Shown here piece after piece: positions 2,212 through 64,000 of a stretch of 64,000 nt of DNA. Both the position numbers and the translations under genes were made by a program. How positions within the stretch are numbered: position 1 is the first letter of the stretch; each line of letters begins with the position of its first letter. Origin of the DNA: a virus; the IMG/VR virus record IMGVR_UViG_3300023174_000064, positions 64,001 through 128,000 of that record; one strand, given 5' to 3'. Below the pieces are notes generated by a model. It did no database searches. It was given only the letters and a program-made list of their open reading frames with translations, and was not told the origin of the DNA.

Positions 2212-2212
2212 T

Positions 2213-2899
2213 TTATTCCTTGTAAGTGCTGGTTGCATCCATAGCAACCCAGTAAGTTAGAGGACGACTGGCATGAGTAAACTGGCCAATAACATTCTTG
2301 GACAGGGCTACATGATAATCGCCGTCAAACATCTTCATATTCTCTAACTTGAAGTTGAATGAGAAGTCTGCTTGATCCTTATTGTCTCCAACACGGATAG
2401 AGAACACGTTGCAAGTTGGATCCTTAAGATCCTTAACCACCGCAAGCACGGCATCATCATCAGATACGAAGCACAGATCTGGATTTTGTAGAACTGCACC
2501 TGCACGAGACAGTTCGCGGAAATCGTCACTGGTCAGATCAAACTCAACCACCGCATCAATTTTCTTGATACTCTTGGTTGGATAAGACAGCAGCTTGGGG
2601 TCTGAATAGAAGTACTTAACCTTGGAACCACTTGCTCCGGTAATGGTCATGTACTTGTCGTCAAAGATAAACTCTGGATCTTGGAACAGGGAAATCACAC
2701 CCAGTAGCTTGTTAAGATCCCAGATACCAAACTCAGTATCAAAAGACTCCTCAACCTCGACTTCCGCCATGATATTCTTGGTGGGAGACATAGTTGTGAT
2801 CTTTGATCCAGCCTTTACGTACAGATTAGAGTTAATACCACTGAAATTCTTAAGAATGTTCAGGGTGTCCTTAGAAATTGTTGTTGTCGCTTTTGTCAT
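2213..2899 (-). CDS. gp45: Sliding clamp
   Basis: TLNILKNFSGINSNL, FGIWDLNKLL motifs; synteny. Confidence 0.95.
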   Translation of the reverse strand: MTKATTTISKDTLNILKNFSGINSNLYVKAGSKITTMSPTKNIMAEVEVEESFDTEFGIWDLNKLLGVISLFQDPEFIFDDKYMTITGASGSKVKYFYSDPKLLSYPTKSIKKIDAVVEFDLTSDDFRELSRAGAVLQNPDLCFVSDDDAVLAVVKDLKDPTCNVFSIRVGDNKDQADFSFNFKLENMKMFDGDYHVALSKNVIGQFTHASRPLTYWVAMDATSTYKE

Positions 2900-2914
2900 A
2901 ATATAAAGTTCCTT

Positions 2915-3097
2915 TTATCGTTCAAATCGTTCAAAATTTTCAAAGTCACCATCATCGGATGAGTGACCGTGCTTTAAATCGTTCAGCCATTGTTGTTGGT
3001 CTGGCTTGCGTGGACGCTTCTTTCGCTTTTGCTTTCGTTCCTTTTGTTCACGCTTCCAACGCTCGTATTCAGATTCAGGTTCAGGAGTATACATCAA
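2915..3097 (-). CDS. Small basic hypothetical protein
   Basis: ORF coupled to the rnh stop (ATGA overlap). Confidence 0.6.
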   Translation of the reverse strand: MMYTPEPESEYERWKREQKERKQKRKKRPRKPDQQQWLNDLKHGHSSDDGDFENFERFER

Positions 3098-3930
3098 AAT
3101 TCCTCTAGATGTGGCATAAGAGTCTTAAGTTTATGGTTCATAAAATATTGGAGCAGTTTTTCTCTGCCCTTTCCTTGTTGTGATCCATACGTTTCTAGGA
3201 TCTTGTCTTGAAGATCTTGTGGAATGTTATTCATGTCAATAAGAGTACTGTTCCTGATGTATTTAGGATCTTCAAAAAATGAAGAGTTCTCAGAATCTTT
3301 CTTTAGTTGATCAATTCGCTTCTGTGTCATTCGGACCTGTCGCTTACCGTCCGTAACAAAAGTATCATCGTCACTAAGCATATTAGGCACACCATCACTT
3401 GAATCACCTCCAATAACATGTTCAAAAAGAACCCCACGAGGATCTTCACACTTTAAAAATTCCTTGGTGGTTGGACTGTACTGTTGTACATTTGGAAAAA
3501 TTTGCAGTTGCTGAAAGTCCTTATCATTAGAAATAATAAGAATATTTTCAGACTGGCAGTACGTCTTGGTCAGTACGTAAATAATATCGTCTGCTTCTGC
3601 TCCCTGTAGACGAATACTGGGATACGGAAACACTTCTGCTACTTCGTTACGAATCTTGTCCAGCACGGCAAAAGCAGCCTTCCATTCGTCCTTCTTGGCT
3701 TCCTGTTGCTTACGGCGATTTTGCTTGTAGTACGGAAAGTACTTGCGTCGCCAGTAGTCAGTACCGTCACTGCAAATAACCAATTCTCCGTACTTACGAA
3801 AATCGGTTCGGTACTTGCGGTACGTATTTAACACGGTGTGACGAATATAATCCTCATTAAGAGGTTCGCCATCCTTAGAAGCCTGAAAAATATTGGCCAA
3901 GATAATTTGATTGTTGTCAATAAGTAACAT
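3094..3930 (-). CDS. rnh: T4-type RNase H / 5'-3' exonuclease
   Basis: MLLID, YWRRKYFPYYKQNR, EADDII, SNDKDFQQL, GDSSDGVPN. Confidence 0.95.
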   Translation of the reverse strand: MLLIDNNQIILANIFQASKDGEPLNEDYIRHTVLNTYRKYRTDFRKYGELVICSDGTDYWRRKYFPYYKQNRRKQQEAKKDEWKAAFAVLDKIRNEVAEVFPYPSIRLQGAEADDIIYVLTKTYCQSENILIISNDKDFQQLQIFPNVQQYSPTTKEFLKCEDPRGVLFEHVIGGDSSDGVPNMLSDDDTFVTDGKRQVRMTQKRIDQLKKDSENSSFFEDPKYIRNSTLIDMNNIPQDLQDKILETYGSQQGKGREKLLQYFMNHKLKTLMPHLEEF

Positions 3931-11528: not shown

Positions 11529-12962
11529 TCAGAGACCGAAACCAGTGTTACCGTGGAGATTATTGACGGCAAAGATACGGTAGTATTGGTTACCACCGAG
11601 AGCGTTGATGTCAGTGTTCTCGGCGAATGGATTGGATACCATGCCGTAACGAGTCTTGAAGCCGATCTTGGGTTGGAAAGTGCTTTGATCGACTGCACGT
11701 ACCATTTGTAACGGAACGTATGGGCAGTAGAACACACCAGCGTCGTATGGGCTTGCACCACGATAGCCGACTAGGCAGAAGTTTGCACCAGCAGCAGCGT
11801 ATGGATCGATATAAACCTTGAACTTGCCGTTTAGAACGCCAGCAAAAGTGTTGCCGGTGTCATCAACCTCTAGTTGAGTTTGTAGAGCAGGAGTTAGGTT
11901 TAGGAATCCACCCATGGCGAGAGCTGAAGCTACGTCGCTTGAGCAAACGATGAAGTTACCCTTACCACGACGAGTTTCCTTGGCGATTTGGTTAGCTTCA
12001 CGTTCGATTTGGAACATGAGACCACGGAAACGTTCTGCACTCCAACGACCATCAGAGTCGGTGTTTAGATCGTAAACACCACCAGTGGTGAGATCGGCTT
12101 GTTGGCAACCAGTCTTGGCAGTGCGGTATAGGGTGTAGATTAGCTCGCGGTTGATTTCGTTGAGAATTTCAGTGCTAAGAATGTTAGCAAGTTCGCTCTC
12201 AGCGTCAAGACCGTGAACAGCCTTTAGATCTTGAGCTAGCTCAGTGCTGTACTCTGCCTTTAGGGCGCGAGTCTTGGCTTCTACAGCTAGACGCTCAATG
12301 CTGAATGCCATTTGGTTGAAGTTTAGTTTGCCACTTTCGCCTAATTCTTCACCAACGTTGGTTAACATACCACGGAAGCTGTTGATATCAAAGCTGCTTT
12401 CGCGGATACCAAAGTTGGCACCTTGAGCAAAACCACCGTTGTTGCTACCGCTAACACCGATAGGGTTGATGCCTTGGTTAGCAGCAGTGGCAGCACCAGC
12501 AGAGGTGTTACCTGAACCACCGAACTTAGCAAAAACTTCTTGGAATAGAGCTTCGCGGCCTACACCAACGCTACCGCTTTCGGTTTGAGACTGATAGCGT
12601 GAACGCATGGCAAAGATTAGACCGGTTGGTGCACTCATTGGTTGCACGCCAGCTAGATCGTAAGCCATTAAGTTTGGCATGCTACGACGAACTAGGCTGA
12701 TTAGAATAGGATCGTAACCTGCGAGGTTAGAATTACCACCTGCAGCTTGTGTTACTCGGAAACCGCCTGCACCCATGGCATTGGCAGGGGCTTCAATAAG
12801 ATATTGCTCACGAAGAGCCTTCTCTTGATTTTCTAGTAGCATAGCAGTACACTTTTTCTTGTACGAATCTGAAATTGAAGGAATAGCCTCGTGTTCTAGT
12901 AGAGGGTTCCATTTTTCTACGAGTGTATCGTAGGGGGTAGTTTCGTTAAAATCCATTGACAT
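11529..12962 (-). CDS. gp23: Major capsid protein
   Basis: LVEKWNPLLE, GVQPMSAPTGLIFAMR, RALKAEYSTELAQDLKAVHGLDAE, YCPYVPLQ. Confidence 0.99.
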   Translation of the reverse strand: MSMDFNETTPYDTLVEKWNPLLEHEAIPSISDSYKKKCTAMLLENQEKALREQYLIEAPANAMGAGGFRVTQAAGGNSNLAGYDPILISLVRRSMPNLMAYDLAGVQPMSAPTGLIFAMRSRYQSQTESGSVGVGREALFQEVFAKFGGSGNTSAGAATAANQGINPIGVSGSNNGGFAQGANFGIRESSFDINSFRGMLTNVGEELGESGKLNFNQMAFSIERLAVEAKTRALKAEYSTELAQDLKAVHGLDAESELANILSTEILNEINRELIYTLYRTAKTGCQQADLTTGGVYDLNTDSDGRWSAERFRGLMFQIEREANQIAKETRRGKGNFIVCSSDVASALAMGGFLNLTPALQTQLEVDDTGNTFAGVLNGKFKVYIDPYAAAGANFCLVGYRGASPYDAGVFYCPYVPLQMVRAVDQSTFQPKIGFKTRYGMVSNPFAENTDINALGGNQYYRIFAVNNLHGNTGFGL

Positions 12963-13007: not shown

Positions 13008-14009
13008 TTAGTAAGTCTTAGTTTGACGCGACAGAGCATTTACATATACAGACATGGGGCCTTCAGTGACTGCAGGTGCATTCCATTGCTCTGTAAGTGT
13101 TTCGGTTTGTTGGGCAACTACTGGAGCAGCCTTCAGATAATTTTCTTTGAGAATTAGAAGCTTGTTTTGGAAGTCTTGAGCGTTGCTGAAATCAATGCTC
13201 TCGGCTAGAGAAGCAAGACGTTCAGCGTCTACTTGAGACATATCAGAAACAGTGCTTAGGAAAATAGCACGAGCTTGACCAGCAGTGACTTCTCGGTTGA
13301 GATTCATGTTGGTTTGAATTTGCTCATTGAGAGCAGATTCTAGTTCTTGGTTCTCGTTAAATAGATCTTCAAGAATATCATGCTTCTTTTCTGGAACTTC
13401 AATGTAGTGAGTCTCGAATAGGCTCTTGAGACCACCAATAAAGCTTTCAGAAATTTCGGTACGAATACCGTTTTCTACGGCTAGCTTGTTTTCTTTCATC
13501 CACTCGTCTACAGCATAGTTTAAATACTCGTCTAGACGAGTTGCTAGTTCTTCAGTAACCTTTTGTACTTCTTCTTGAATGATTGAAGCACTTTCACGAA
13601 GAACTTGTTCACGAATCTTGGTGGTGCGCTCGTTGAGAGCAGCTTCAAAGATTACAGCAGTCTTGCTCATGAATTCTTCAGACAGATTTTCACCGTTAAA
13701 TAGTGAACCAAGATGTTCTTGGATTGTGTCTGGAATTTCGTCTTCATGTGCAGCCTCTTGGTCAGGAAGATCTTGACCTGCAGCTGTTGCGTGAGCAGCA
13801 GCCACGTCTCGTGTTTCCTTGGATCGTCTGGCTGCATCACCAGCAAATTGTGCACCGCCTGGACGAAGGCTCATTTGATTGCGTTGAGCACTTCCTTCCA
13901 TCCAACTGGTGTCAAGGGTACCAAGAAATGGTCCCTTACCTGTGGCATCCATTGCACCTTTGCCTGTTGCATCCATTACTACGGGTCGTTGTTGTTGTGT
14001 CTTTTTCAT
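13008..14009 (-). CDS. gp22: Prohead scaffold/core protein
   Basis: LSEEF..KTAVIFEAA, YLNYAVDEWMKENKLAVENGIRTEISESF. Confidence 0.95.
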   Translation of the reverse strand: MKKTQQQRPVVMDATGKGAMDATGKGPFLGTLDTSWMEGSAQRNQMSLRPGGAQFAGDAARRSKETRDVAAAHATAAGQDLPDQEAAHEDEIPDTIQEHLGSLFNGENLSEEFMSKTAVIFEAALNERTTKIREQVLRESASIIQEEVQKVTEELATRLDEYLNYAVDEWMKENKLAVENGIRTEISESFIGGLKSLFETHYIEVPEKKHDILEDLFNENQELESALNEQIQTNMNLNREVTAGQARAIFLSTVSDMSQVDAERLASLAESIDFSNAQDFQNKLLILKENYLKAAPVVAQQTETLTEQWNAPAVTEGPMSVYVNALSRQTKTY

Positions 14010-14078: not shown

Positions 14079-15338
14079 TTAAATCATTCCGTATCGTAGA
14101 TCTTTTTTCATCATCATTAAACGTCTGGCAGCTTCAGTATTCATCTGATCAATATAATTATTTGCCACTTTTCCTGCTAATTTTGCTGTTCCACCAAGAG
14201 CAACACCTGTGGTTTTAGCAAGCGCACCACTTGTTTTGTCGCCCAGCAAATTGGCTGCTATATTTCCTACCACACCGGTAGTAGCGTTCACAGCAATACC
14301 CAGAGGATTTGTTAAATCTAAGATATTTTTATAGTGCTTCATTTGTTCTGCACCTATACCTGACGGATCAAAAATGGCAGCTTGAGCCACTCGACCACTT
14401 CTGATCTTTGCCATAGTTTCTGGAGAAGTTGCAGCCAACATTCTAAAAAAGTTGGTTGTGTCTTCACCAGGAACAGGTTTAGTCATTCTGGAATAAGTTT
14501 CTGCAGCTTTCTTGGGATTTAAAGAAACGTCTAAAGCTTCTGCGGCTGTATCTTTAATTTTTCCAACTACGTCTTTAAATCCTTCGATGTATTTGTTATT
14601 TTGAGTCCACTTGTCAGATTCAATTTTTTTAAATCTTGCTGGATCTTCAGCCTTCATCGCACTAACAGAACCAGAAGGAGTCACGATTCCAGACTCTTGA
14701 TCTGTATCTAAAAGTTTTTCATTTAGAGTAACACTTTCAAGTAAAGACTTTAATGAATTAGGTCTAAATCTGAGAGTTTGTTCAAATATACCACGACTAG
14801 AACGGTTCATTCTAGCCAATCTGGCTGAGTGTCTAGCAGCAGCAAGTTCTTCTGATCGCTTTAATTCATTTTCTTCTGCTCGTTCTCTCATTCTATTTAA
14901 ACGAGCATCTCTTTTTGCTTTTCGTTCTCCTTCCAGTTCCTCTGGAGTTTTTGCTTTTCCGTATCCTTTTACTTTTGGTTTAACAGGAGGTTTTGGAGGT
15001 TCGGGAGTGGGCTCGGGCTTGGGTGGTTCGGGAGTGGGCTCGGGCTTGGGTGGTTCAGGTTCTGGATTAGGAACTAGACCTGGTGGTGGTTCACCGGGAG
15101 CTGGTGGTTGTGGTTCTGGATTAGGAACTAGACCTGGTGGTGGTTCACCGGGAGCTGGTGGTTCAGGTTCTGGATTAGGAACTAGACCTGGTGGTGGCTC
15201 CGGTTCAGAAACTCCTTGTTTATCTGTATTATTATTTTTGTTTTTATCTTTATCTTTACCACCAGCATTACCAGCAGTATCCATTATTGATGGTGGAGTA
15301 ATAACACTTTCTAATAAATTTTTTAATTTGATTTTCAT
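14079..15338 (-). CDS. Pro-rich hypothetical protein, putative internal head protein
   Basis: 419-aa ORF between gp21 and gp22; repeated LK(N/S)LLESV motif. Confidence 0.7.
   Translation of the reverse strand: MKIKLKNLLESVITPPSIMDTAGNAGGKDKDKNKNNNTDKQGVSEPEPPPGLVPNPEPEPPAPGEPPPGLVPNPEPQPPAPGEPPPGLVPNPEPEPPKPEPTPEPPKPEPTPEPPKPPVKPKVKGYGKAKTPEELEGERKAKRDARLNRMRERAEENELKRSEELAAARHSARLARMNRSSRGIFEQTLRFRPNSLKSLLESVTLNEKLLDTDQESGIVTPSGSVSAMKAEDPARFKKIESDKWTQNNKYIEGFKDVVGKIKDTAAEALDVSLNPKKAAETYSRMTKPVPGEDTTNFFRMLAATSPETMAKIRSGRVAQAAIFDPSGIGAEQMKHYKNILDLTNPLGIAVNATTGVVGNIAANLLGDKTSGALAKTTGVALGGTAKLAGKVANNYIDQMNTEAARRLMMMKKDLRYGMI
14998..15196. repeat. Tandem repeats: about 3 x 54 bp (EPPPGLVPNPEPxPPAPG) and about 2 x 27 bp (EPPKPEPTP)
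   Basis: tctggattaggaactagacctggtggtgg recurs at 15061, 15115, 15169. Confidence 0.9.
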
Positions 15339-15982
15339 TTTAATTTTCTTAAAAAGTCTTCAAATAATTTTACAGCTTTTTGTTCTAGTTGACGTGCAGA
15401 TACTTTAGAAAGTTCTCGGTGATACTCTTCAATTTGACGTTCAACAAGCATACCATTATCCCAGATCCACTCTTTGCCTTCCATGATACCGTTTACGAAA
15501 GCGTTAGGCGCAGAAGGATCAGCAACAATATCTACAGCGGAAAGCATGAAGTCAGGCTGAACTTCATTGTAACCATTTCTGGCTTTCAGTGAACCCATAC
15601 CACGAGTTGAAACGCCAAGACGAGCACCTTCATTGATCAGATTTTTAACAATCTCACCCATTGGAGTGCTCATAACTTTAGCTTTACCGTACACATCAGA
15701 ACCATCACATTTAAATTCTTTAATAATAATTGCAACACGGTCTAAGTTTACTGTTGGACCTGCTGGATGATTTAGTTCACCAAACGCACGGCTGTTGTTT
15801 ACAAACTCTTTGGTGTAACGATTAACTTCATTTAACAGAATGTGTTTTGGGTACATTCTTTTGTTTCGATTGAGGGTATCGGCTTGCATGAAGGTACCTT
15901 CAATGAAATAATTTTTGCCACCGTCAGCAGCTGCTTCGGTTAAAAACTCTACTTGTTCAACTGTCTCGGTTATTAGTTTCAT
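15335..15982 (-). CDS. gp21: Prohead protease
   Basis: MKLITE, NRNKRMYP, GELNHP, GVSTRGMGSL, DIVADPSAPNAFV. Confidence 0.97.
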   Translation of the reverse strand: MKLITETVEQVEFLTEAAADGGKNYFIEGTFMQADTLNRNKRMYPKHILLNEVNRYTKEFVNNSRAFGELNHPAGPTVNLDRVAIIIKEFKCDGSDVYGKAKVMSTPMGEIVKNLINEGARLGVSTRGMGSLKARNGYNEVQPDFMLSAVDIVADPSAPNAFVNGIMEGKEWIWDNGMLVERQIEEYHRELSKVSARQLEQKAVKLFEDFLRKLK

Positions 15983-54732: not shown

Positions 54733-55896
54733 TTATTTGTTATATGCTTGCGGATAGTAAGTGGGAAACCATTCTCCCCTTTTTTGTCTTTCACGAACAG
54801 CTTTGAATCCTGCTGGATCACCTTCTAATTCGCCTTCTGGTGTAATATTAAAAGCAAGACCAGCATCACTTTGAAACATTTTTTCCATTTGTTGCCTAGT
54901 TCTATTATCTGGTGGATGTAATAAACCAACCATACTATCTATTGCGGCGGGAGCTGCAGCTGCCATACCACCTACAACCGCACTGCCTACGCCAGACATT
55001 AAAGCTAAAGTATCAGCAGAAATTGCACCCCGTCTTGCACCACTTGGAGGTGTTTGTGGTTTCGTGGGTGTGGATGCGGAAGCTGGTGTTTGTGTTGTAG
55101 TTGGGGTTACTGGTTTTGAAACTTCTATTGTGCCTGCTCTTAATGGTCCACTAGAATAACCTTCTATTGTGCCTGCTCTTAATGGTCCACTAGAATAACC
55201 TTCTATTGTGCCTGCTCTTAATGGTCCAGAAGAAATATTTGCTGTTGCTTTTGTTGTCTGGGGGGCTAACACATGAGGAGAAAGTATAATTTTTTTGGGA
55301 TCTCTTACATTAATTATTTCATGCGGGACAACTTCTCCAATTTTTTTATCATATGCTTTTATAGCGTCTATTCCTCTTTCATCTAAAGCACTTTGTATTC
55401 GTGCTAAATAGTCAGGGTTTTTTCTATCTTTAAAATTATCTGGAATAGATATTCCCAATCGTTCGCCCACTGTTGGTATATTTTCTCCATAACCCATTTC
55501 TATTGGATTTTCTATATTAGCATACGCAGTAATAATTCTACTACCTGGTGCGTATGAATGTGTAGTTTTACTTGTTGGTGGTTTGAAAGGACGAAGATAC
55601 CATGGTTGTTTTATTTCTATACTATTTGGTATTGTTGTCAGATAACGTTCAGCATAAGTTGGACTTGAAGTCCAATATTGTCCGGGACCCCATGTATTAG
55701 TACCAAGATTATTACTTATTCTTCCTGTTTCTGCAAAATCAAAATTTGGTGTAGCAGACGTTCCACGATATAGTGGTTGAGGTAATCCGGTTTTAGGGTC
55801 TATAGCCTTTGTTCCTTTTAAACGGGTTAAAAGATCATTTACATAATTATTAAATGAATTATCAGATTCTGATAAAAATTGAATAAAGCTTTTCAT
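54733..55896 (-). CDS. Putative virion-packaged ADP-ribosyltransferase-like (ART-PolyVal-like) protein
   Basis: MKSFIQFLSE start; LYRGT...GPGQYWTSS...AERY...AYANIENP...GIDAI...EII. Confidence 0.65.
   Translation of the reverse strand: MKSFIQFLSESDNSFNNYVNDLLTRLKGTKAIDPKTGLPQPLYRGTSATPNFDFAETGRISNNLGTNTWGPGQYWTSSPTYAERYLTTIPNSIEIKQPWYLRPFKPPTSKTTHSYAPGSRIITAYANIENPIEMGYGENIPTVGERLGISIPDNFKDRKNPDYLARIQSALDERGIDAIKAYDKKIGEVVPHEIINVRDPKKIILSPHVLAPQTTKATANISSGPLRAGTIEGYSSGPLRAGTIEGYSSGPLRAGTIEVSKPVTPTTTQTPASASTPTKPQTPPSGARRGAISADTLALMSGVGSAVVGGMAAAAPAAIDSMVGLLHPPDNRTRQQMEKMFQSDAGLAFNITPEGELEGDPAGFKAVRERQKRGEWFPTYYPQAYNK
55122..55228. repeat. 39-bp tandem repeat, about 2.7 copies (SSGPLRAGTIEGY)
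   Basis: cttctattgtgcctgctcttaatggtcca at 55122, 55161, 55200. Confidence 0.95.
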
Positions 55897-55901
55897 ACTA
55901 A

Positions 55902-55909
55902 TATTTATA
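55902..55909 (-). promoter_or_regulatory. Late promoter TATAAATA
   Basis: Exact octamer 5 nt before the ATG. Confidence 0.75.
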
Positions 55910-55911
55910 AT

Positions 55912-55941
55912 AAAAAACCTCACTTTTACGTGAGGTTTTTT
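55912..55941 (-). terminator. Intrinsic terminator
   Basis: aaaaaacctcac tttt..gtgaggtttttt. Confidence 0.85.
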
Positions 55942-56037
55942 AAGAGTTATTTGTACGATTCTGTTAGACTCTAATCACAGACAACGCTGAAGTTGTAGCA
56001 CCTTCAGAAAGCTTTTATAATATAAAATAAAGTGTCT

Positions 56038-56199
56038 TTAATAATTCTTAGCAATACTAGGAAGACGACCAAGCCGTTCTAGGGCTTCGCGGGTCTTCTT
56101 CTTGGCATTTTCAGCAATAGCAAGTTGACGATCTCGCGTAGCATTACGCTTACGCTTACGGTGCTTCATGAAAACTTTACGAGTAGGTGTGTTAGCCAT
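56038..56199 (-). CDS. 53-aa very basic protein MANTPTRKVFMKHRKRKRNATRDRQLAIAENAKKKTREALERLGRLPSIAKNY
   Basis: Hand translation; has its own promoter. Confidence 0.65.
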   Translation of the reverse strand: MANTPTRKVFMKHRKRKRNATRDRQLAIAENAKKKTREALERLGRLPSIAKNY

Positions 56200-56206
56200 A
56201 ATGTTT

Positions 56207-56234
56207 ATTATATACTACGGTTTAAACAAGTCAA
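56207..56234 (-). promoter_or_regulatory. Sigma70-like promoter TTGACT-16-TATAAT
   Basis: 7 nt before the ATG at 56199. Confidence 0.75.
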
Positions 56235-56466
56235 ATAATTTATCCCAAAATCTTTTAATAAAATTTGGAAATCCTAGAGGTCCTCGTTGTAGGCTGTACT
56301 GCCAACCAGACAGATCTGTGGCTCTCATAAACTCTTCGGCACTCATTCTGGAGGACTGAGTGGAAATGCTTCTCCACAGCTTAACTTCATTAGACAACAC
56401 CTTGATCTGCTTTAACAGCAGTTCTTGGTATTGTGTATGAAGGTCTCGGCAGTTTTTATCACACAT
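56215..56466 (-). CDS. Hypothetical protein
   Basis: TAATG overlap with guaC. Confidence 0.55.
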   Translation of the reverse strand: MCDKNCRDLHTQYQELLLKQIKVLSNEVKLWRSISTQSSRMSAEEFMRATDLSGWQYSLQRGPLGFPNFIKRFWDKLFDLFKP

Positions 56467-57524
56467 TATGAAAAGATCGTATTAATTTGTCGGTTCACTC
56501 GTATAAACGTAGTACACTTTGGAAGATCCTTGAGACGAGCCGCACCAACGTATGTGCAAGCAGAACGAACACCACCAAGAATTTGTTGCATCACACCAGC
56601 CACAGGGCCTGCTGGTTCAACAAACACTCGCTTTCCTTCTGCTGCACGATATGTTGCCACTCCTCCAGAACGCTTCTCCATTGCTGCTGCTGAGGACATC
56701 CCGTAGAACTCCTTGCCCTCGTCTGTCAGCTCGCCTGCTGATTCGTCTGTACCAGCAAACATTCCACCAATCATAACAAAATCTGCACCCGCTCCAAATG
56801 CCTTGGCTACATCACCAGGACAGGTACAACCACCGTCCGATATCACGTAACCACCCAATCCGTGTGCGGCATCAGCACACTCCATGATGCACGACAGTTG
56901 CGGATAGCCAACACCAGCAACCTTGCGAGTCGTGCAGACTGATCCAGGACCAATACCAATCTTTACAATATTTGCTCCTGCAAGAATCAGTGCTTCAGTC
57001 ATTTCTCGTGTCACAACATTTCCAGCAATCAGAATATGATCCGGAAACAATCCACGAATAGTACGAACATAATTCACAAACTTTTCAGTGTACCCGTTTG
57101 CCACATCAATACAAATAAATTTGATGGACTTATGCTTGTTTAGAATTCGTTCAGCCTTTTGAATTTCTTCCATGCTGGAATTCATGTCACCCATGCCCAT
57201 GGTGTACACCACATTAGGTGGCCAGTTCACATGATCCGTGATCCAACCGTACATAAAGTTGTCCCATTCGGCTTCTGTGTAATATTTGTGAATACCACAC
57301 AGTGCATTATATTCTGCTAGGCTGTCAGCCATTTGAAACGTACCAACTGTGTCCATGTTGGCAGCAACAATCGGCACACCAGTCCATTCTTGTTCCATAT
57401 TGTCTGGAAGTTTAAACGTAAACTTGCGTGCCACATCAACTTTACTGCGACTGTCAAGATTACTGCGCTTTGGGCGAATCAGAACGTCGGCAAAATCCAG
57501 CTTGATATCATCTTCAATCTTCAT
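56466..57524 (-). CDS. guaC: GMP reductase
   Basis: [49 protein letters not shown]. Confidence 0.95.
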
Positions 57525-57530
57525 AATAAC

Positions 57531-57559
57531 AATTTACTCCAAAAAAGTCACACAGTCAA
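57531..57559 (-). promoter_or_regulatory. Sigma70-like promoter TTGACT-17-TAAATT (guaC)
   Basis: 6 nt before the ATG. Confidence 0.55.
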
Positions 57560-57569
57560 GTAAAAAACA

Positions 57570-57809
57570 TTATTTTCCGCCAGCAGCGTAGTAACCAGAG
57601 ATGGCAGAACGCAGTTTAGTCATGATTTTTGCCAAATTACGCCAATCTTTTTGATCAAGCAGATACTCTTCGTACATACCAAGCACTTCAGCAGCAGTTT
57701 CGGCCAATTTTTGTGAAGTTTTTTCGAGAAGTTCTGATTTTTTCTCTTCAGGCATTGGTAGATCCCCTTGTGGTTCTGGTTTTTTCTTATTGGATGTCAG
57801 TTTTTTCAT
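57570..57809 (-). CDS. Hypothetical protein
   Basis: 79-aa ORF in operon. Confidence 0.6.
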   Translation of the reverse strand: MKKLTSNKKKPEPQGDLPMPEEKKSELLEKTSQKLAETAAEVLGMYEEYLLDQKDWRNLAKIMTKLRSAISGYYAAGGK

Positions 57810-58224
57810 TTCTGATCAATTTAAAAACGCGATTTGGGTAAAAACTTCTCCACTCACTAGCATCTAAGTCCCAAACTGCCATAACTCCTTGTCTATTGTA
57901 TTTAGTTGCAACCGGATCTTTATCTTGCAGAGTACATCTCATGCGTCTCATGGTTCCGTCAGTGATTTTATAAAAGAAAAGAGTGCAAACTCCTTCATTT
58001 AATTGTTCATCAATTTCGGTTGGTGAAGGATTTATTATTTCAACAGGAGTTTTATCTTTTCTTTCCTGAATTTCTGCTAAAGATTGATCAACAAACTTTA
58101 ATTCACCAATAGTTCGTAAAATTTTATTTTCACTTTTGGCAAATTTACCACTAGCATCTCGCGGTTGGAGTGCTTTTGACCACATTCCAGAAAAATCTAA
58201 TGGATTTTTTTTAAATTTTGCCAT
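57787..58224 (-). CDS. WYL_2/SH3-like beta-barrel protein with N-terminal RDASGKF motif
   Basis: F.K..DG..R.M.CTL...VWDL....WRSF; start taken at MAKFKK. Confidence 0.7.
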   Translation of the reverse strand: MAKFKKNPLDFSGMWSKALQPRDASGKFAKSENKILRTIGELKFVDQSLAEIQERKDKTPVEIINPSPTEIDEQLNEGVCTLFFYKITDGTMRRMRCTLQDKDPVATKYNRQGVMAVWDLDASEWRSFYPNRVFKLIRNEKTDIQ

Positions 58225-58225
58225 T

Positions 58226-58597
58226 TTATTCGTAAAAATCCGGATTTTTCTTTCCGTATAGCCGAATAATTTGACCTGCAGTTGCGTTTGCTTCGTTTTC
58301 GCAGTCAGAACCTGTGTCGCCATTCAGTTCTTCACCGTTCACGTTTTGTTTGTGGTGTACAAGTTCGTGTGCAAGTGATCTGGCAACATCAAAAAGTGCT
58401 CGACCTTTGGCGTAAACTTTGATATTTTTAGTGTTTGGGCAATAATTTGCCGTTGTCATGTTGCCGTCTCGTACTTGCACCAATTCAATTTTTGGTGTAT
58501 CTTGTAATTTCAGATGATCACAAGCAAATTGAACAAAATCGTCCAATTTTTCTTCCAACAACATGGTGGTTTTTAGATATTCGTTGAATCCTAACAT
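58226..58597 (-). CDS. Zincin-like metallopeptidase
   Basis: RSLAHELVHHKQ...ENEANA (HExxH...E). Confidence 0.75.
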   Translation of the reverse strand: MLGFNEYLKTTMLLEEKLDDFVQFACDHLKLQDTPKIELVQVRDGNMTTANYCPNTKNIKVYAKGRALFDVARSLAHELVHHKQNVNGEELNGDTGSDCENEANATAGQIIRLYGKKNPDFYE

Positions 58598-58605
58598 GAC
58601 TCTAG

Positions 58606-58625
58606 TATTTATAGAAAGCTAAATA
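58606..58625. promoter_or_regulatory. Divergent late promoters (TATAAATA on -, CTAAATA on +)
   Basis: Between the divergent zincin and M15 genes. Confidence 0.6.
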
Positions 58626-58630
58626 TTGGT

Positions 58631-59251
58631 ATGAAATCATTTTTACAACACCTTCAAGAACGTTCTTTATTGGCTCCCATGATGTTGTCTGCTGCAATTG
58701 GTGCAGGAACTCCTCCAGAAGAACCACCACCAACAACCACTACCACTACGACAACAAAACCCACAGAACCAAAAAAACCAAAAACAGTTACTACACAACA
58801 GTACGCAACAGATAATGCAGCAAAAAATGGTATTTTGCAATCTGAAGATTTAACTCTTGTTGGAAATTTACAAAATCCAACACCATGGAATGATAAATTT
58901 GGAGAAAAGCCGTGGTATTTTGGTAAAGCTTATTTAAATCCACAAGCAGCAAGTGCATTTAAAAGAATGGATGACGATTACTATAAAGAAACCGGAAAAC
59001 GTATAGGCATTAATAGTGCTTATAGAAGCCGACAACAGCAAGCAATGTTTGGTGGAAAATATGATGTTGCTGCTCAACCTGGGAAGTCTAGACACGGGCT
59101 AGGATTAGCGTTAGATGTTCAACCAGGAACTCCAGAATTTAATTGGATGAAATCACGAGGTGGCAATTACGGTTGGAAATGGATGAATATTAAGAATGAT
59201 GCTTGCCACTTTGGATACTGTGGAAACATGGAAGTTCCAGATAAAGATTAA
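58631..59251 (+). CDS. Peptidase M15 (VanY-like) peptidoglycan peptidase with capsid-targeting-like N-terminus
   Basis: INSAYRS..QQ, PGKSRHGLGLALDV, DACHF. Confidence 0.85.
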   Translation: MKSFLQHLQERSLLAPMMLSAAIGAGTPPEEPPPTTTTTTTTKPTEPKKPKTVTTQQYATDNAAKNGILQSEDLTLVGNLQNPTPWNDKFGEKPWYFGKAYLNPQAASAFKRMDDDYYKETGKRIGINSAYRSRQQQAMFGGKYDVAAQPGKSRHGLGLALDVQPGTPEFNWMKSRGGNYGWKWMNIKNDACHFGYCGNMEVPDKD

Positions 59252-59332
59252 TTAAATTAAATAATAATTCCACGTTGACGTAATTTAAATTTCATCCAAT
59301 CGTTGGCATTTTCAAAAACGGTTTTAACTGGT

Positions 59333-60181
59333 TCATAACTTACTTTTGCTGGTTTTTTTTACTTCTTTTCTAGCTTTTATAATTTCTTTCATGCTCATTC
59401 CTGGTATTGCAGAGTGAACAAGTTTAGAGAGCAGGGCGTCTTCTTTGGCTTGAAATTTTATATCCCCTTTTTGTTTTTTCTCTCCCTCATCATAAACACC
59501 AGATAAAGCTCGTATTGTTGCTTCCTGATCTTTAGTTTGTATTCCTAACTGTGTTAAATGTTTTCCTATGTAATATTTGCTTGTTGGTACTGTGGAAAAT
59601 CTTTTAACTCTATCTCCGTGAACTAATGTGATAACATCAATTCCTTCTCTTCTATGATGAGCCGCCAATCCCATTTTTGCTCTTTGAGTATCTTCTTTTC
59701 CTAGTGGAGTTCTAGAAGAAACTTTTCCTTCTTTTGGGGGAACAGGCTTAACTCCTTGTTGTTGTAATTCTTTAGAAAGCCGTGTGGATGAAACAAGAGC
59801 GGGTCTAGGTCCACGTGAAAGAACTCCCCCTTTTATTTCCTCTCCAGTACGTCTAAATGTGGTTGGTGAAGATCTGTCCGTTTTAGATCCAACTTCTTCA
59901 AAAGAAACGTCCAATTCTCCTTTAGCCCCAGGTCTACTAACTTTAACTACCCAACTACCAGATCCATTTTTATGTGGTATTGTGTGAGTATAATCGTGCT
60001 CATGACGATCAACATAAAAGTGCTTGTGTATATCTTTAAAAAATGCGTCTTTATTTTGTTGTGTAATTTTGTGACCTTCGTAAGAATATAATTCACCTAT
60101 TGTATCCGCAGCACCGACCATCTGTGCTTCATCACCCGATTCTCTAGAGGATAAAATAGGTTGTCTAGTTATTTTGCTCAT
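59333..60181 (-). CDS. Hypothetical protein, possibly frameshift-disrupted at both ends
   Basis: 282-aa ORF; alternative-frame extension to 59257. Confidence 0.55.
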   Translation of the reverse strand: MSKITRQPILSSRESGDEAQMVGAADTIGELYSYEGHKITQQNKDAFFKDIHKHFYVDRHEHDYTHTIPHKNGSGSWVVKVSRPGAKGELDVSFEEVGSKTDRSSPTTFRRTGEEIKGGVLSRGPRPALVSSTRLSKELQQQGVKPVPPKEGKVSSRTPLGKEDTQRAKMGLAAHHRREGIDVITLVHGDRVKRFSTVPTSKYYIGKHLTQLGIQTKDQEATIRALSGVYDEGEKKQKGDIKFQAKEDALLSKLVHSAIPGMSMKEIIKARKEVKKTSKSKL

Positions 60182-60226
60182 TTGGGTTGATTAAATACTG
60201 TTATTATAAACTGAATAAAAGCATTT

Positions 60227-61417
60227 TTATTTTTGTTGATTTGCTGGATGATCTTTACCAACAACAACTGGAGAACCAGGTTCGCTTGTTGGTCGTACAG
60301 CAAAGTTTCCTGCTTTTGCTAGATTCTTCTTACCACCTTTAATACGAAGACCAGCAATAACACCTTCATTCTCACCAATACCGTTTAGTTGTTTATCCAA
60401 ATAACGGTGATCGTGAGCGTCTGCATCAACAACTCGCCACTTCTTACCGGTAGCTTCGTCTACCACATGTGAAGGTAGAACACCACCGGGTTTTTCGCCT
60501 CTGCCAGCGTGAACAGCAAACACCATGGCAACAACTCCACCATTATTTAAATGTTGACGTGCGTGATGCCAATTGCTGTCTGGGCCTTGAATACCTGTAG
60601 AAGAAAATGTGAGATGGTAATTATCAGGAAGTTTTTTAGGAGTACCGTCTGTATTCATTACTCTGCTGGCTATCTTGGTGTAATCGTAAAATTGAGTGTT
60701 TTTGTGTTCGCTAAAAATTTCAGGATGTACGGTTTCCCAAGGAATATCAGAAACAACATTTAGACGAGCAACAGCTTTCTTACCTTGTTTGGCCATGGCC
60801 CGTTCGTGTGCGTCTAATTCATTGTGTAGTATTATACCAGCACTTTTTGCTTTAGTTACTACTCTTTCTAATTTTCTTCCCCGTGCTTCTTGACTCATGG
60901 CTCCACGGCCAGTCATGTTTAAACAAGCTTTAGCACACTCTCCGGTTGCACACGGACAAGTATTAATTAAACCGGATTGTTTTTCTGGAAGCAAAGTTAA
61001 TCCTATTGTTCCTCTGTCTGGAATTGTGGATTCTTCTTTTGCTAGTTTGGGATTTCCACCTTGTGCAGTAAATAATTTAGTTCCAGGTCTAATTCCTAAA
61101 TCTGCTCTTGCTGCTTTTTTTGCTTTTTTATCTCTCCAGAGTTTATGTGATTCACCCATGTCTGCTTTCATTGTTGCAAACGAATATTTTTTAGCTTCAG
61201 GTTGAGGAGCAGTGGACGCAAGAACTGGTAATGAGATTTGTTCGCTTAAAAATTCAATATAAGTTTCAAAAGTAATGTCTTCAAATAGTTCATCAAATAC
61301 TGATTCGGTTATTAAACGATCAGCAGTAGTTTCATAATTTTCTACTATTACATCACTAATGGTTCTGAATTGTTTTCCAATAAAACGCTCTATTAATTTT
61401 TTGCTGAATGGATTCAT
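60227..61417 (-). CDS. Gp88-like Cys-cluster protein with N-terminal extension
   Basis: NPKLAK, NTCPCATGECAKACLN, RLNVVSDIPWE, FYDYTK, NYHLTFS. Confidence 0.75.
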   Translation of the reverse strand: MNPFSKKLIERFIGKQFRTISDVIVENYETTADRLITESVFDELFEDITFETYIEFLSEQISLPVLASTAPQPEAKKYSFATMKADMGESHKLWRDKKAKKAARADLGIRPGTKLFTAQGGNPKLAKEESTIPDRGTIGLTLLPEKQSGLINTCPCATGECAKACLNMTGRGAMSQEARGRKLERVVTKAKSAGIILHNELDAHERAMAKQGKKAVARLNVVSDIPWETVHPEIFSEHKNTQFYDYTKIASRVMNTDGTPKKLPDNYHLTFSSTGIQGPDSNWHHARQHLNNGGVVAMVFAVHAGRGEKPGGVLPSHVVDEATGKKWRVVDADAHDHRYLDKQLNGIGENEGVIAGLRIKGGKKNLAKAGNFAVRPTSEPGSPVVVGKDHPANQQK

Positions 61418-61429
61418 TTTACTTTCCTG

Positions 61430-62149
61430 TTATAAACTGAGTCGTTGATCTTGTTTGGATCTGAGATATTCTGTAACTTTATCTAGGTATCCTAGATTGC
61501 GTAACTCTTTGAACACCAAGTTCTCCACCGAGAACTCGCCACCTTGTTTCAGTGCAGCTGCACGCATCTCACGGAATTTAGTTTTTAATGCTTCAAACGC
61601 TTCATCTTCCGCACTGGTACTGATTAGCGTATCAATCTTTTCCACGTACTGTTCAACTTTACGTTTGATGCCCGGATCTTTCAGATTGACTTCTTTCTTT
61701 ACCGGTTGAACCAACCACTTATCATTCTTGACACTGTACACGCCTTGATCTTTGGTGTACGCGGTATCTTTGTCTTGAGCGTACAGTTCAACGTCGTGTC
61801 CGTAAATTTTAATATCGTGGACGAGCCCCCATAGTTGTTTCTTGCCACGCAGGTACTCGTCAAGTAGTCCTTCGCATTCTGGAATCTTATCCATGTCAAC
61901 CACAACGTGCAGATCAATGTCTGAATACGGTGTGTAGTTGTAATTGGCGTTACCACCAACTAAAATAATGTCAGTGATTGCCGCAGGAGGAATCTTGGCG
62001 AATCCTGCCCAGGTTCTGGCAATCATCATCAGCTTGGCACGAACTTCAGACTTCAATTTGGTGTCATCCCAAATTTTGAGATTTAACTCGTCATGATACT
62101 GCAGTGTTAACTCTACTGCTTCTCGTAAAATGTTCCGGAAAGATTTCAT
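61430..62149 (-). CDS. Pol-beta-family nucleotidyltransferase
   Basis: DIILVGGNANYNYTPYSDIDLH, VELYAQD, GEFSVENLVFKELRN. Confidence 0.85.
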   Translation of the reverse strand: MKSFRNILREAVELTLQYHDELNLKIWDDTKLKSEVRAKLMMIARTWAGFAKIPPAAITDIILVGGNANYNYTPYSDIDLHVVVDMDKIPECEGLLDEYLRGKKQLWGLVHDIKIYGHDVELYAQDKDTAYTKDQGVYSVKNDKWLVQPVKKEVNLKDPGIKRKVEQYVEKIDTLISTSAEDEAFEALKTKFREMRAAALKQGGEFSVENLVFKELRNLGYLDKVTEYLRSKQDQRLSL

Positions 62150-62979
62150 TAGTCAATCTTGTCTGGATTGCCGTTCATGTAGTCGTGTACTGAACTAATG
62201 TAGTCTTTAGCCTTGGTGATTTTGGATTGTACCCAAGCTTCTAGTTGGGTGTCGTCCTTCATCATGCTTGCAAGCTCTTGAGCCTTTTGTGCAAGAACTT
62301 TTAGTTCACCGATAGCCATTTGACCTTCGGTGTCTCGTTCCTCGTATATTTTTGGCATACTTGGAAGTGAGCCGGTTACCGAATTGTACATCTTCTTGTT
62401 AGCGTTTAGAACACTGTTTAACAAACCGCTGCCGGTTGTTGCAGGTACTGTAGATTGTGGTGCAGGTGTGCGTATTGGGATGCTGGGTATCTTATCTTGA
62501 TAGACTGGATATTTTCCACGTATATTATCGTTTGGGTTCTCTTTATCCGGAAGAATACGGTCGTATCCAGATGTTGGTTTTGGAGTTGGAGTAGTATTAT
62601 CTTCTACTCCAATAAGGTTTCCGTCTGGACCGTAAATTGGTTTTCCTGGTTGTGCACCACCCCATGCGCCGGTTCCGGGTTTTGGTTTGCTGCCACCCCA
62701 ACTGCCGTCTCCAGGAGTTGGTGTTGGCTTGGGTTTTGGAAACCATGAAGGAAGTGGACGTTCCGGAGCGTCCTTTTTTCTTATCCATCGGTTTCGTGGT
62801 TTATAATTAAGACCTACTAATTTGCGATCATATAGTATCTCCCAACCACCGTCGTCGGTTGGTGGTTTTGACATATCACTCATTGGATCATAAAATGGGG
62901 TATATGGGGTATATGTAATTTTATCTTCACTAACAATTTTTTTCCAGGTTTCGTGTAATGCTTTGGTGATGGGATCCAT
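62149..62979 (-). CDS. Pro/Gly-rich putative internal virion protein with C-terminal LEAWVQSKITKA.DY domain
   Basis: Start taken at MDPITKALHE after the AAAGGA SD and late promoter. Confidence 0.65.
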   Translation of the reverse strand: MDPITKALHETWKKIVSEDKITYTPYTPFYDPMSDMSKPPTDDGGWEILYDRKLVGLNYKPRNRWIRKKDAPERPLPSWFPKPKPTPTPGDGSWGGSKPKPGTGAWGGAQPGKPIYGPDGNLIGVEDNTTPTPKPTSGYDRILPDKENPNDNIRGKYPVYQDKIPSIPIRTPAPQSTVPATTGSGLLNSVLNANKKMYNSVTGSLPSMPKIYEERDTEGQMAIGELKVLAQKAQELASMMKDDTQLEAWVQSKITKAKDYISSVHDYMNGNPDKID

Positions 62980-62996
62980 ATAATTTCCTTTTTTAG

Positions 62997-63004
62997 TATT
63001 TATA
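62997..63004 (-). promoter_or_regulatory. Late promoter TATAAATA
   Basis: Exact octamer heading the 62979-59333 operon. Confidence 0.75.
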
Positions 63005-63011
63005 CAAAATG

Positions 63012-63038
63012 AAAACCCCCGGATTTCTCCGAGGGTTT
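63012..63038 (-). terminator. Intrinsic terminator
   Basis: aaacccccgga tttc tccgagggttt. Confidence 0.75.
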
Positions 63039-63062
63039 CCAAAGACCTAAGAGATTACAGGA

Positions 63063-63221
63063 TCACTTGGCGGCGCAAGCACTCACAGCAGCAACCCCAG
63101 ACCACACCCAAGCAATGGTCTTTACAGCGTAGGGAAGCACAGCAAGAAACAGCGCAACTTGAAGAGGATTCTTCCAGCAGAATCCACCGCTAACCGGACA
63201 TGACTTATTATTAGTACTCAT
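63063..63221 (-). CDS. 52-aa membrane protein MSTNNKSCPVSGGFCWKNPLQVALFLAVLPYAVKTIAWVW
   Basis: Strong SD AAAGGAG; hydrophobic segment; own terminator. Confidence 0.65.
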   Translation of the reverse strand: MSTNNKSCPVSGGFCWKNPLQVALFLAVLPYAVKTIAWVWSGVAAVSACAAK

Positions 63222-63304
63222 TAGTGTCTCCTTTATAAAATGCCTTCCCGAAAGAAGGTAAGATATCTAGCAGGATTCCACTAATTTTTCCGTTTTAGGA
63301 AAAC

Positions 63305-63850
63305 TTAAAAAACCTCGTTTATAGCGTGAATAACGCCTTTTTGAATGCCAGCATTTGGAAAAACTGCATGAACTGTCTTTAAGTACGATTCTAGGTTCTG
63401 GTTACGCTGCCACGAATCTTTCTTGGTTTGTTTTCCTACACCACTTTTATCACCAGGATATACGGATATAAACAATCTGCCACCCGGCTTCAAGTGCGAT
63501 TGTGCGGCTTTCAGTACGTCAAGATGAACTTCTGGTTCTTTGATTGTGTTCAGCACGTTGAATAAAGTCACAGTGTCTGCGCCTCCGCGAGCCTTCACGG
63601 TTTCCGCCACTTTTTTATTGTGTTCTTCTGAACGATTGAACGGATCCAGCACGTGACTTTCCACTCCGTGTTTGGCTAAAAAGTTCACACCGTGATCGTA
63701 CTTGCCACCACCCAGATCCACATTAAGTGTGTCCGGCTTCCATCCAATATGTTTGGCAACAGTACTAAACCCTTTGGCCACTTGCGATTGTGAGGTTCCG
63801 GCAGATGAAAACTCTTGAGCTTCTTGTAAGTGTTGTTTAAATGTTTTCAC
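63305..63850 (-). CDS. Class I SAM methyltransferase with capsid-targeting-like N-terminus
   Basis: VDLGGGKYD, LDPFNR, ADTVTLFNVLNTI, LKPGG; GTG start. Confidence 0.8.
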   Translation of the reverse strand: MKTFKQHLQEAQEFSSAGTSQSQVAKGFSTVAKHIGWKPDTLNVDLGGGKYDHGVNFLAKHGVESHVLDPFNRSEEHNKKVAETVKARGGADTVTLFNVLNTIKEPEVHLDVLKAAQSHLKPGGRLFISVYPGDKSGVGKQTKKDSWQRNQNLESYLKTVHAVFPNAGIQKGVIHAINEVF

Positions 63851-64000
63851 GAAGGATCTCCTGGCGATTTTATTGTTCCTGCTTCTCGTAGTCGTTGCCT
63901 AATTTCAGGAGTAACTCGGTTTGAAAATGCCTGAAGTCTGCGAACCGTATTAGAATCTCCACCGTTTCTGTATAAATCTATAAATCCACGTTTATCAACT
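63847..64000 (-). CDS. 3' end of an upstream hypothetical gene
   Basis: Open frame ...RLREAGTIKSPGDPS* with GTGA overlap. Confidence 0.5.
   Translation of the reverse strand, partial: VDKRGFIDLYRNGGDSNTVRRLQAFSNRVTPEIRQRLREAGTIKSPGDPS

Follow-up and report, generated by a model that had tools for sequence, protein, structure and literature searches.

Why should enzymes as unlike one another as an ADP-ribosyltransferase (ART)-like protein, an M15 peptidase, a nucleotidyltransferase and a methyltransferase begin with nearly the same ten residues? The question is raised by positions 54,733 to 63,850 of the window, the whole 64,000-nucleotide stretch analysed here, which comprises bases 64001–128000 of a single viral contig of 146,037 bp (IMG/VR record IMGVR_UViG_3300023174_000064) estimated to be 80% complete. 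The genome is T4-like and comes from an uncultured freshwater phage with a gp21-type protease. A first-pass annotation of the window had proposed that such leaders resemble the capsid-targeting sequence (CTS) of T4 internal proteins and that the enzymes behind them are made late, packaged, cleaved and injected. In our analysis the packaging part of this proposal appears supported, with cleavage and injection plausible. We put at roughly 0.78 the probability that the ten-residue leader is this lineage's T4 CTS, and hence that the phage carries an enzyme-loaded variant of the T4 internal-protein system. That system is known from T-even phages; here it occurs in a distant lineage, expanded and loaded with enzymes. 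As the same tag heads ten or more proteins without relation to one another, including several enzymes, the phage probably injects a ready-made toolkit together with its DNA.

The four leaders quoted in the first-pass annotation all lie where it had placed them, and the set proved larger because the window end splits the cluster. Every start codon in six frames of the whole genome was scanned for a hydrophobic residue at position 4, Leu, Ile, Val or Met at position 8 and Glu at position 10. With the strict pattern defined as M-K-S/T-F-x-Q-H/Y-L/I-x-E, ten strict leaders were found within 12 kb (genome 119896–131980), the first at window position 55896 and the last about 4 kb past the window end; six of them lie outside the window, at genome 129550–131980, equivalent to window positions 65550–67980. 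The same scan found no strict leader in the other 134 kb of the genome. The annotation had suggested a motif scan of N-termini as a check, and the motif was found in none of the genome's other N-termini, those of its late structural genes included. On a score matrix trained solely on leaders from other viral contigs the ten reach 13–30 bits and the next-best position in the whole proteome 12 bits; scores above 9 bits occur at 12 positions, whereas shuffled proteomes have 0.9 such positions on average. Phe4, His/Tyr/Phe7 (Ile in one leader), Leu/Ile8 and Glu10 are invariant or nearly so, and the first residue behind the leader is Ala or Ser in 8 of 10. The codons vary synonymously, with four Ser codons, five Leu codons and both Gln codons in use, and the DNA 5' of the start codons is unrelated, promoters aside. 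The leader has therefore been selected as a peptide and not as DNA. Behind it stand members of different Pfam families, and several of the tagged proteins are small, acidic and of low complexity. All-against-all BLAST of the cargo found nothing in common except one 38-residue segment, and a reading of the tagged proteins as diverged paralogues was rejected on this result. A signal peptide was also considered and rejected, the leader being charged and amphipathic, not hydrophobic.

Work by Mullaney and Black (1996) and Repoila et al. (1994) reportedly describes the T-even CTS, the internal proteins that carry it and their processing by gp21. The T4 CTS, MKTYQEFIAE, is cut once by gp21 (PMC8442874), and suppressor genetics assign targeting mainly to its residues 4 and 7 and processing to residues 8 and 10 (PMC9026906). 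The likeness to T4 that had been claimed for the leader is borne out at precisely these targeting and processing positions (PMC9026906; PMC8442874), and with the matrix of environmental leaders the T4 CTS itself reaches +9.5 bits. The genome also encodes the machinery that such a tag would need. By PHROG matches, the left half of the window holds a T4-type morphogenesis module with large terminase, tail sheath, tail tube, portal, two small genes in the gp67/68 position and, beside the portal, a gp21-type prohead protease, a gp22-type scaffold and a gp23-type major capsid protein (Table 1). No cultured phage has a capsid protein more than about 57% identical to this one, cyanomyophages coming nearest, and a megablast search with the leader region matched none of 50,697 phage records. 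Aligned to the T4 gp21 structure 5jbl, the protease keeps the catalytic His (in E-L-N-H-P) and Ser (in G-V-S-T-R-G) where the crystallised chain has Ala; it is the enzyme predicted to cut the leaders off, and the gp22-type scaffold is the likely docking surface. The capsid propeptide ends in Y-L-I-E↓A-P (arrows mark the cut, a predicted one in this phage), near the T4 gp23 cut position F-L-T-E↓A-E in the alignment. A 419-residue core protein encoded between protease and scaffold begins M-K-I-K-L-K-N-L-L-E↓S-V. The putative L/I-x-E cut motif is common to leaders, capsid protein and this extra core protein. A co-fold of the protease with a tagged protein, run without controls, scored 0.00 and carries no weight either way.

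The tagged genes are also predicted to be transcribed late, along with the head genes. The late-promoter word TATAAATA occurs 21 times in the genome, about the number that base composition predicts, and 17 of the 21 copies have a gene start no more than 60 nt downstream. Capsid and scaffold genes are among those it precedes, as are five genes of the leader cluster, so that the late expression proposed in the first-pass annotation agrees with the promoter prediction on which it rests. Two cassettes, one before the ART-like gene and one before the first of two genes whose products start M-D-P-I-T, have a hairpin terminator followed by TATAAATA. The other leader genes are packed end to end behind these promoters, their stop and start codons often overlapping. 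Sigma-70-like sites show no enrichment in the cluster.

The leader is not confined to this genome. A degenerate, back-translated leader pattern matched more than 118 IMG/VR contigs, for which our own estimate from the degeneracy of the pattern is about one chance match. Among the matches listed, these loci hold 168 leader open reading frames (ORFs) in 69 cargo groups, of which 64 were kept after five spurious groups were removed, a lower bound. Pfam families among the listed cargo include the anti-CBASS (cyclic-oligonucleotide-based antiphage signalling system) nuclease Acb1 (L020 8640–9134, 4e-17), S-AdoMet lyase and DUF6267; a 152-kb relative contributes an ART-PolyVal cargo (L027 1180–1638, 5e-12), which passes the Pfam cut-off and is not the same protein as the window's. 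Also listed are three cytidylyltransferase-like groups, a lysozyme with LysM, a poly(A) polymerase with an HD domain, methyltransferases and a HAD phosphatase. A gp21-type protease was present in 8 of 8 long contigs tested (103–511 kb), and the peptide is kept across phages whose proteases are 35–66% identical and whose G+C ranges from 36 to 49%. Leader and protease occur together in two complete jumbo-phage genomes with terminal repeats (L070, 511 kb, and L072, 315 kb; proteases 35% and 41% identical to the window's), so the tag extends beyond T4-size phages. Whole-genome scans of three relatives found 6, 2 and 2–3 leader ORFs, by comparison with which the ten leaders here represent an expansion. 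The closest large relative has 76 of 184 genes in common with this genome. The tagged cargo shared with it is limited to the zincin, which has a strict leader there, and the DUF6321 domain; cargo turnover is therefore fast. Such quick turnover between relatives would be expected of takeover or counter-defence functions. On balance, and with less assurance than we have for the present phage, we favour a wider reading in which the CTS is a clade-wide address label by which gp21-protease phages of about 100 kb to more than 500 kb preload active enzymes. The cargo would then comprise ARTs, nucleotidyltransferases, methyltransferases, wall peptidases, kinases, enzymes that destroy S-adenosylmethionine (SAM) and Acb1, and this phage, with 10 to 14 cargoes gathered in a single late cluster, would be a case of expansion.

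Evidence that proteins with this leader reach the virion comes from cultured cyanophages. The CsCl-purified virion proteome of the T4-like cyanophage S-CREM2 comprises 52 of 219 proteins (PMC10665884). When the whole S-CREM2 genome was run through the same leader scan, four ORFs with MK-type leaders (M-K-x-F/L-x-x-F-L-x-E) were found, encoding a SAM hydrolase, a 78-residue protein, an APH-like kinase and a cytidylyltransferase. The virion list includes every one of these four (hypergeometric P=0.003), and in mature virions the tagged homologues are represented by 1 to 21 unique peptides apiece. S-CREM2 ORF156, a 51%-identical homologue of the window's nucleotidyltransferase, is in that list too, and a kinase of phage S-CRM01 described as a virion protein (PMC10665884) starts M-I-S-F-D-Q-F-L-S-E. 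The S-CREM2 study reports the presence of these proteins in virions and mentions neither a loading mechanism nor a leader (PMC10665884), and none of the cyanophage papers searched uses the term 'capsid targeting'. As a separate observation, an 869-residue S-CREM2 virion protein annotated as Cas9-like (L155, 7704–10313) lacks an N-terminal leader and has R-F-A-S-F-M-A-E↓A at residues 18–25, resembling the longer propeptide of T4 IPI.

Our results are consistent with the following model. The tagged genes would be transcribed late, alongside the head genes, and the amphipathic leader, with Phe4 and an aromatic residue at position 7, would dock each protein on the scaffolding core while the prohead is built. 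The gp21-type protease would cut after L/I8-x-E10 while it matures the capsid protein, and the mature cargo would be retained in the DNA-filled head. At the next infection the cargo would leave through the tail with the DNA and so be active before any phage gene is expressed. In the window this cargo would consist of the ART-like enzyme, the M15 peptidase, the Pol-beta nucleotidyltransferase, the SAM methyltransferase, the GP88 protein and, probably, the small zincin. Docking, cleavage and injection in this phage, together with the target of each enzyme, are steps that we infer.

Could the shared start instead be a nucleic-acid signal, for translation or mRNA stability, or the scar of cassette recombination, with a functionless peptide? 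Gene shuffling at conserved boundary sequences does occur in T4-type phages, and several leader genes have a promoter-proximal context in common. Yet the residues are kept despite synonymous codons while the DNA before the ATG is not conserved, the peptide persists across phages with divergent proteases and G+C, the conserved residues are the functionally mapped T4 positions, and late structural genes of the same genome do without the leader; we regard such an origin as very improbable. The leader could also be a true gp21-cut propeptide on proteins that serve as transient core parts or late-activated enzymes and not as injected effectors. The T4 core proteins gp22, gp67 and gp68 are mostly cut and lost, not delivered (PMC5694885), the 419-residue core protein beside the protease has the same kind of cut site, and the small, acidic, low-complexity nature of several tagged proteins would suit such a role. 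This explanation, to which we give little credence, is opposed by the tagged homologues in mature CsCl-purified S-CREM2 virions, by the retention in the head of T4 proteins that are cut once after the CTS (PMC8442874) and by cargo such as Acb1, SAM hydrolase and ARTs, which would be useful in the next host and have no obvious use in a prohead. For one cargo the doubt is somewhat greater. The M15/VanY peptidase could be the endolysin, because other muralytic domains were not found: Phage_lysozyme and Amidase_2 were detected nowhere else in this genome, estimated as 80% complete. Its leader match would then be incidental or serve expression, and its N-terminus would work as a weak signal-anchor of the signal-arrest-release (SAR) kind, exporting the enzyme at lysis; residues 12–28 are weakly hydrophobic, with much Gly, Ala and Ser. 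It is also the sole gene of the cluster on the + strand, with a weak endolysin PHROG match (2.6e-4). Against this, the peptidase and the DUF6321 protein 7 kb away agree in all of their first ten residues, PHROGs match the peptidase best to one embedded in tape-measure proteins, that is, to virion-borne wall hydrolases, the hydrophobicity of residues 12–28, 1.21, is low for a membrane segment, and a lysozyme with the same leader is among the IMG/VR cargo. We consider the endolysin assignment rather unlikely.

Preferring the reading of the leader as a CTS, we note several points that weigh against it besides the missing muralytic domains and the weakly hydrophobic segment just described. Packaging, cleavage and injection are argued here by analogy and from evidence in a relative, and the authors of that relative's proteome caution that co-purification of abundant proteins with virions may occur (PMC10665884). 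Upstream of leader ORFs in other contigs TATAAATA is found at 11% versus 3%, an excess that is real yet modest. Untagged genes, among them a GMP reductase gene and that of a WYL_2 protein, lie among the tagged ones, so the cluster is no pure cargo operon, and some of its cargo families occur leaderless in marine cyanophages, within the replication module. The ART assignment combines a sub-threshold Pfam match with a low-confidence model. T4 has a packaged ART of its own, Alt, which is made late, trimmed by gp21, injected with the DNA and acts on host proteins at time zero. Alt, of the Alt/VIP2 family, bears particular N- and C-terminal propeptides in place of the internal-protein CTS. Enzyme cargo is moreover without precedent in T4's CTS set, as the T4 internal proteins are small inhibitors.

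Table 1. Features of the window discussed in the text (window coordinates; aa, amino acids)
Feature	Position	Strand	Basis or remark
gp23-type major capsid protein	11529..12962	-	phrog_138 6e-150; TATAAATA upstream
gp22-type scaffolding protein	13008..14009	-	phrog_237 1e-69; TATAAATA upstream
Extra Pro-rich core protein, 419 aa	14079..15338	-	between protease and scaffold genes
gp21-type prohead protease	15335..15982	-	phrog_207 1.5e-79; T4 gp21 structure 5jbl 1.8e-25
ART-like protein, 387 aa, MKSFIQFLSE	54733..55896	-	leader scan; Pfam ART-PolyVal
Terminator hairpin then TATAAATA	55902..55942	-	TATAAATA at 55909(-), 6 nt before ART-like ATG
Zincin-like protein, 123 aa, HExxH	58226..58597	-	degenerate leader ending L-L-E at residue 15; TATAAATA 58606-58613
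VanY/M15 peptidoglycan peptidase, 206 aa, MKSFLQHLQE	58631..59251	+	VanY 4e-9
GP88-family protein, 396 aa, variant leader MNPFSKKLIE	60227..61417	-	GP88 1e-33, domain from residue 121
Pol-beta-type nucleotidyltransferase, 239 aa, MKSFRNILRE	61430..62149	-	NTP_transf_2 9e-5
Pro/Gly-rich protein, 276 aa, MDPITKALHE	62149..62979	-	behind terminator + TATAAATA (62997-63041)
Class I SAM methyltransferase, 181 aa, MKTFKQHLQE	63305..63850	-	Methyltransf_23 4e-9; GTG start overlaps upstream gene's stop
Leader-tagged protein, 567 aa, MLSFRQYLEE	63847..64000 (3' end), continues past window	-	leader scan

The domains that the first-pass annotation had assigned to the M15 peptidase, GP88 protein, nucleotidyltransferase and methyltransferase were recovered (Table 1), all four passing the Pfam cut-offs. 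Its ART call fared less well: the ART-PolyVal match (E=0.002, 19.4 bits) falls under the cut-off of 31.2, and the fold matches, obtained with a low-confidence model, are to ARTs. That AlphaFold2 (AF2) model is poor (mean confidence, pLDDT, 55) because the few homologues made the alignment too shallow; its Foldseek matches are PARP, tankyrase, MbcT, RES and diphtheria-toxin ART domains, with a cyanophage pre-ejectosome chain at the top. We call the 387-residue protein ART-like with moderate confidence. Behind the leader come the ART-like domain, a low-complexity linker that holds three repeats, a hydrophobic segment rich in Gly and Ala, and a conserved C-terminal tail. Three close homologues were found among 1.8 billion representatives, and all start with the same leader and keep the linker, the Gly/Ala-rich segment and the tail; beyond them, word-index and full HMMER searches matched the ART-like domain to one 5291-residue protein only. 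The 38-residue segment common to two cargoes (47% identity) lies in the C-terminal third of the ART-like protein and in a 190-residue tagged protein at genome 130874–131446. With the Gly/Ala-rich stretch that precedes it, it may be a membrane-insertion or docking module.

For the zincin, too, the domain match is weak (DUF6647, 0.003) and below cut-off, while its leader variant is backed by relatives, a strict leader being present in relative G003 and an M-K-N-Y-...-L-I-E start in L114. Among the weaker leaders that had been listed, those of the zincin and the GP88 protein are supported, and the two MDPIT starts, which share just L/I-x-E at residues 8–10, are uncertain. In the M15 peptidase a Pro/Thr linker follows the weakly hydrophobic segment, and the best PDB match is YodJ (1e-4). 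The GP88 leader is supported by homologue N-termini of the form M-K/N-x-F-x-K-N-L-V-E and similar; across 120 homologues Phe4, Leu/Ile/Val8 and Glu10 are kept. The GP88 protein has a second T4-like site, T-Y-I-E-F-L-S-E at residues of about 52–60, which is closer to the T4 CTS than its own N-terminal leader and recurs as Y-[ILV]-x-F-L-x-E in 86 of the 120 homologues. This suggests two-step processing or a propeptide of roughly 59 residues. PDB sequence searches with the GP88 protein, nucleotidyltransferase and methyltransferase returned nothing useful, and PHROGs gave a function for none of six tagged or neighbouring proteins.

The nucleotidyltransferase gave an AF2 model of pLDDT 74 with weak Foldseek matches to aminoglycoside nucleotidyltransferases, CD-NTases and MNT. 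Its homologues in close relatives have the strict leader, those in marine contigs, S-CRM01 and Caulobacter phage Cr30 have shorter variants, and those of the freshwater cyanophage DSL-LC02 and the Lak megaphage Lak-A1 have none. DUF6267 homologues are likewise found both tagged and untagged. Of 78 methyltransferase homologues about 60 have the leader; it is missing from the most distant, which begin at the conserved core right after E10 of the tagged forms. Judging from these homologues, the leader is a modular and portable tag. MDPITKALHE is possibly a second leader type, with L-x-E at residues 8–10. The 276-residue protein that bears it scores negative on the main leader matrix, and its C-terminal domain is kept in many marine contigs, where the start is M-K-S-K-L-N-D-A-G-L-I-A-E. 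As only the L-x-E register is in common, the MDPIT starts and the 419-residue core protein were left out of the ten. Past the window end six more leader genes extend to genome 131980, their products being a helical-repeat candidate, a DUF6321 protein (4e-19) and four small proteins without an assigned function. The first, of 567 residues, may be an LRV/HEAT-repeat protein (protein atlas viral clusters, score 0.92; a lead only).

Some further observations concern the neighbours and relatives of these genes. The untagged pair among the leader genes consists of a GMP reductase/IMPDH-family gene (2e-71; window 56466–57524) and that of the WYL_2 protein (57787–58323), and the same pair adjoins leader genes in relative G003. 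The 419-residue core protein has the cut-site-like word L-L-E-S-V at residue 8 and then again internally, as S-L-L-E↓S-V; a PHROG search with it gave no match. In L114, an IMG/VR locus from a close relative, two tagged modules stand in one frame (1947–3503), the second with the leader M-K-K-F-V-Q-Y-I-S-E and no stop between them; this fusion could be a two-cargo polyprotein freed by the head protease, or an assembly error. A conserved gene trio recurs in L031, L060, L063, L064 and some 20 further marine IMG/VR loci. It encodes an MDPIT-related protein, with the marine start given above and a C-terminus matching that of the window's MDPIT protein, a 148-residue leader protein with a weak Zn_protease match, and a nucleotidyltransferase whose leader has 9 residues and ends in F-F-E. 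A tblastn search of cultured phages with the 148-residue protein gave no match.

Proteins injected with the DNA act before phage genes are read, the stage at which restriction, CBASS and similar defences settle how an infection ends. To our knowledge, injected proteins outside a few model phages are known just from scattered virion proteomes. If the leader is a reliable loading signal, injected cargo and injected proteomes would become predictable from the genomes of uncultured phages and from metagenomes. The recurrence of kinases, cytidylyltransferases and SAM hydrolases in purified cyanophage particles would be explained, dozens of uncharacterised families would be flagged as candidates for takeover or counter-defence, and further natural tags would be at hand for placing foreign proteins in T4-type heads. 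Takeover and counter-defence in the first minute would be delivered as protein and not as genes. In this genome, a 12-kb block whose genes would otherwise be hypothetical is given a role by this reading.

How far does the cluster resemble systems already described? As in the T-even internal proteins Ip1–Ip3 (and Ip4–Ip13), the tag is a ten-residue N-terminus, M-K-T/S-Y/F-x-Q/E-F/Y/H-I/L-x-E, with the same four key positions, in a genome that has a gp21-type protease and a T4-type scaffold, and it is joined to unrelated cargo expressed late from a fast-changing locus. T-even phages have at least ten Ip families with only the tag in common (PMC12373910). T4, however, has 3 tagged proteins where this phage has 10 to 14, and T-even cargo consists of small GmrSD-type restriction inhibitors without enzymatic domains, whereas here it includes ART-like, M15, nucleotidyltransferase and methyltransferase proteins. 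The phage is also a freshwater one, far from Tequatrovirus. Its ART-like protein differs from Alt in being nearest to ART-PolyVal and PARP-like folds and in having a CTS-type leader. The cluster C T4-like cyanophages S-CRM01 and S-CREM2 carry the same leader type on virion proteins, namely a kinase, a cytidylyltransferase, a SAM hydrolase and the homologue of the window's nucleotidyltransferase, a cargo that overlaps that of this phage only at the nucleotidyltransferase. The polyvalent proteins are a predicted injected arsenal in which ART, metallopeptidase and methyltransferase are the commonest enzymes (Iyer et al. 2017, PMC5512222). The notion, put forward in the first-pass annotation, of a polyvalent protein broken into modules stands as an analogy: the tagged ORFs have at most one recognisable domain each, and only the ART links the two, weakly. 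Polyvalent proteins are single giant polypeptides of 2 to 15 domains, often anchored by MuF or portal (PMC5512222), whereas in this phage the domains are encoded apart, each behind a tag.

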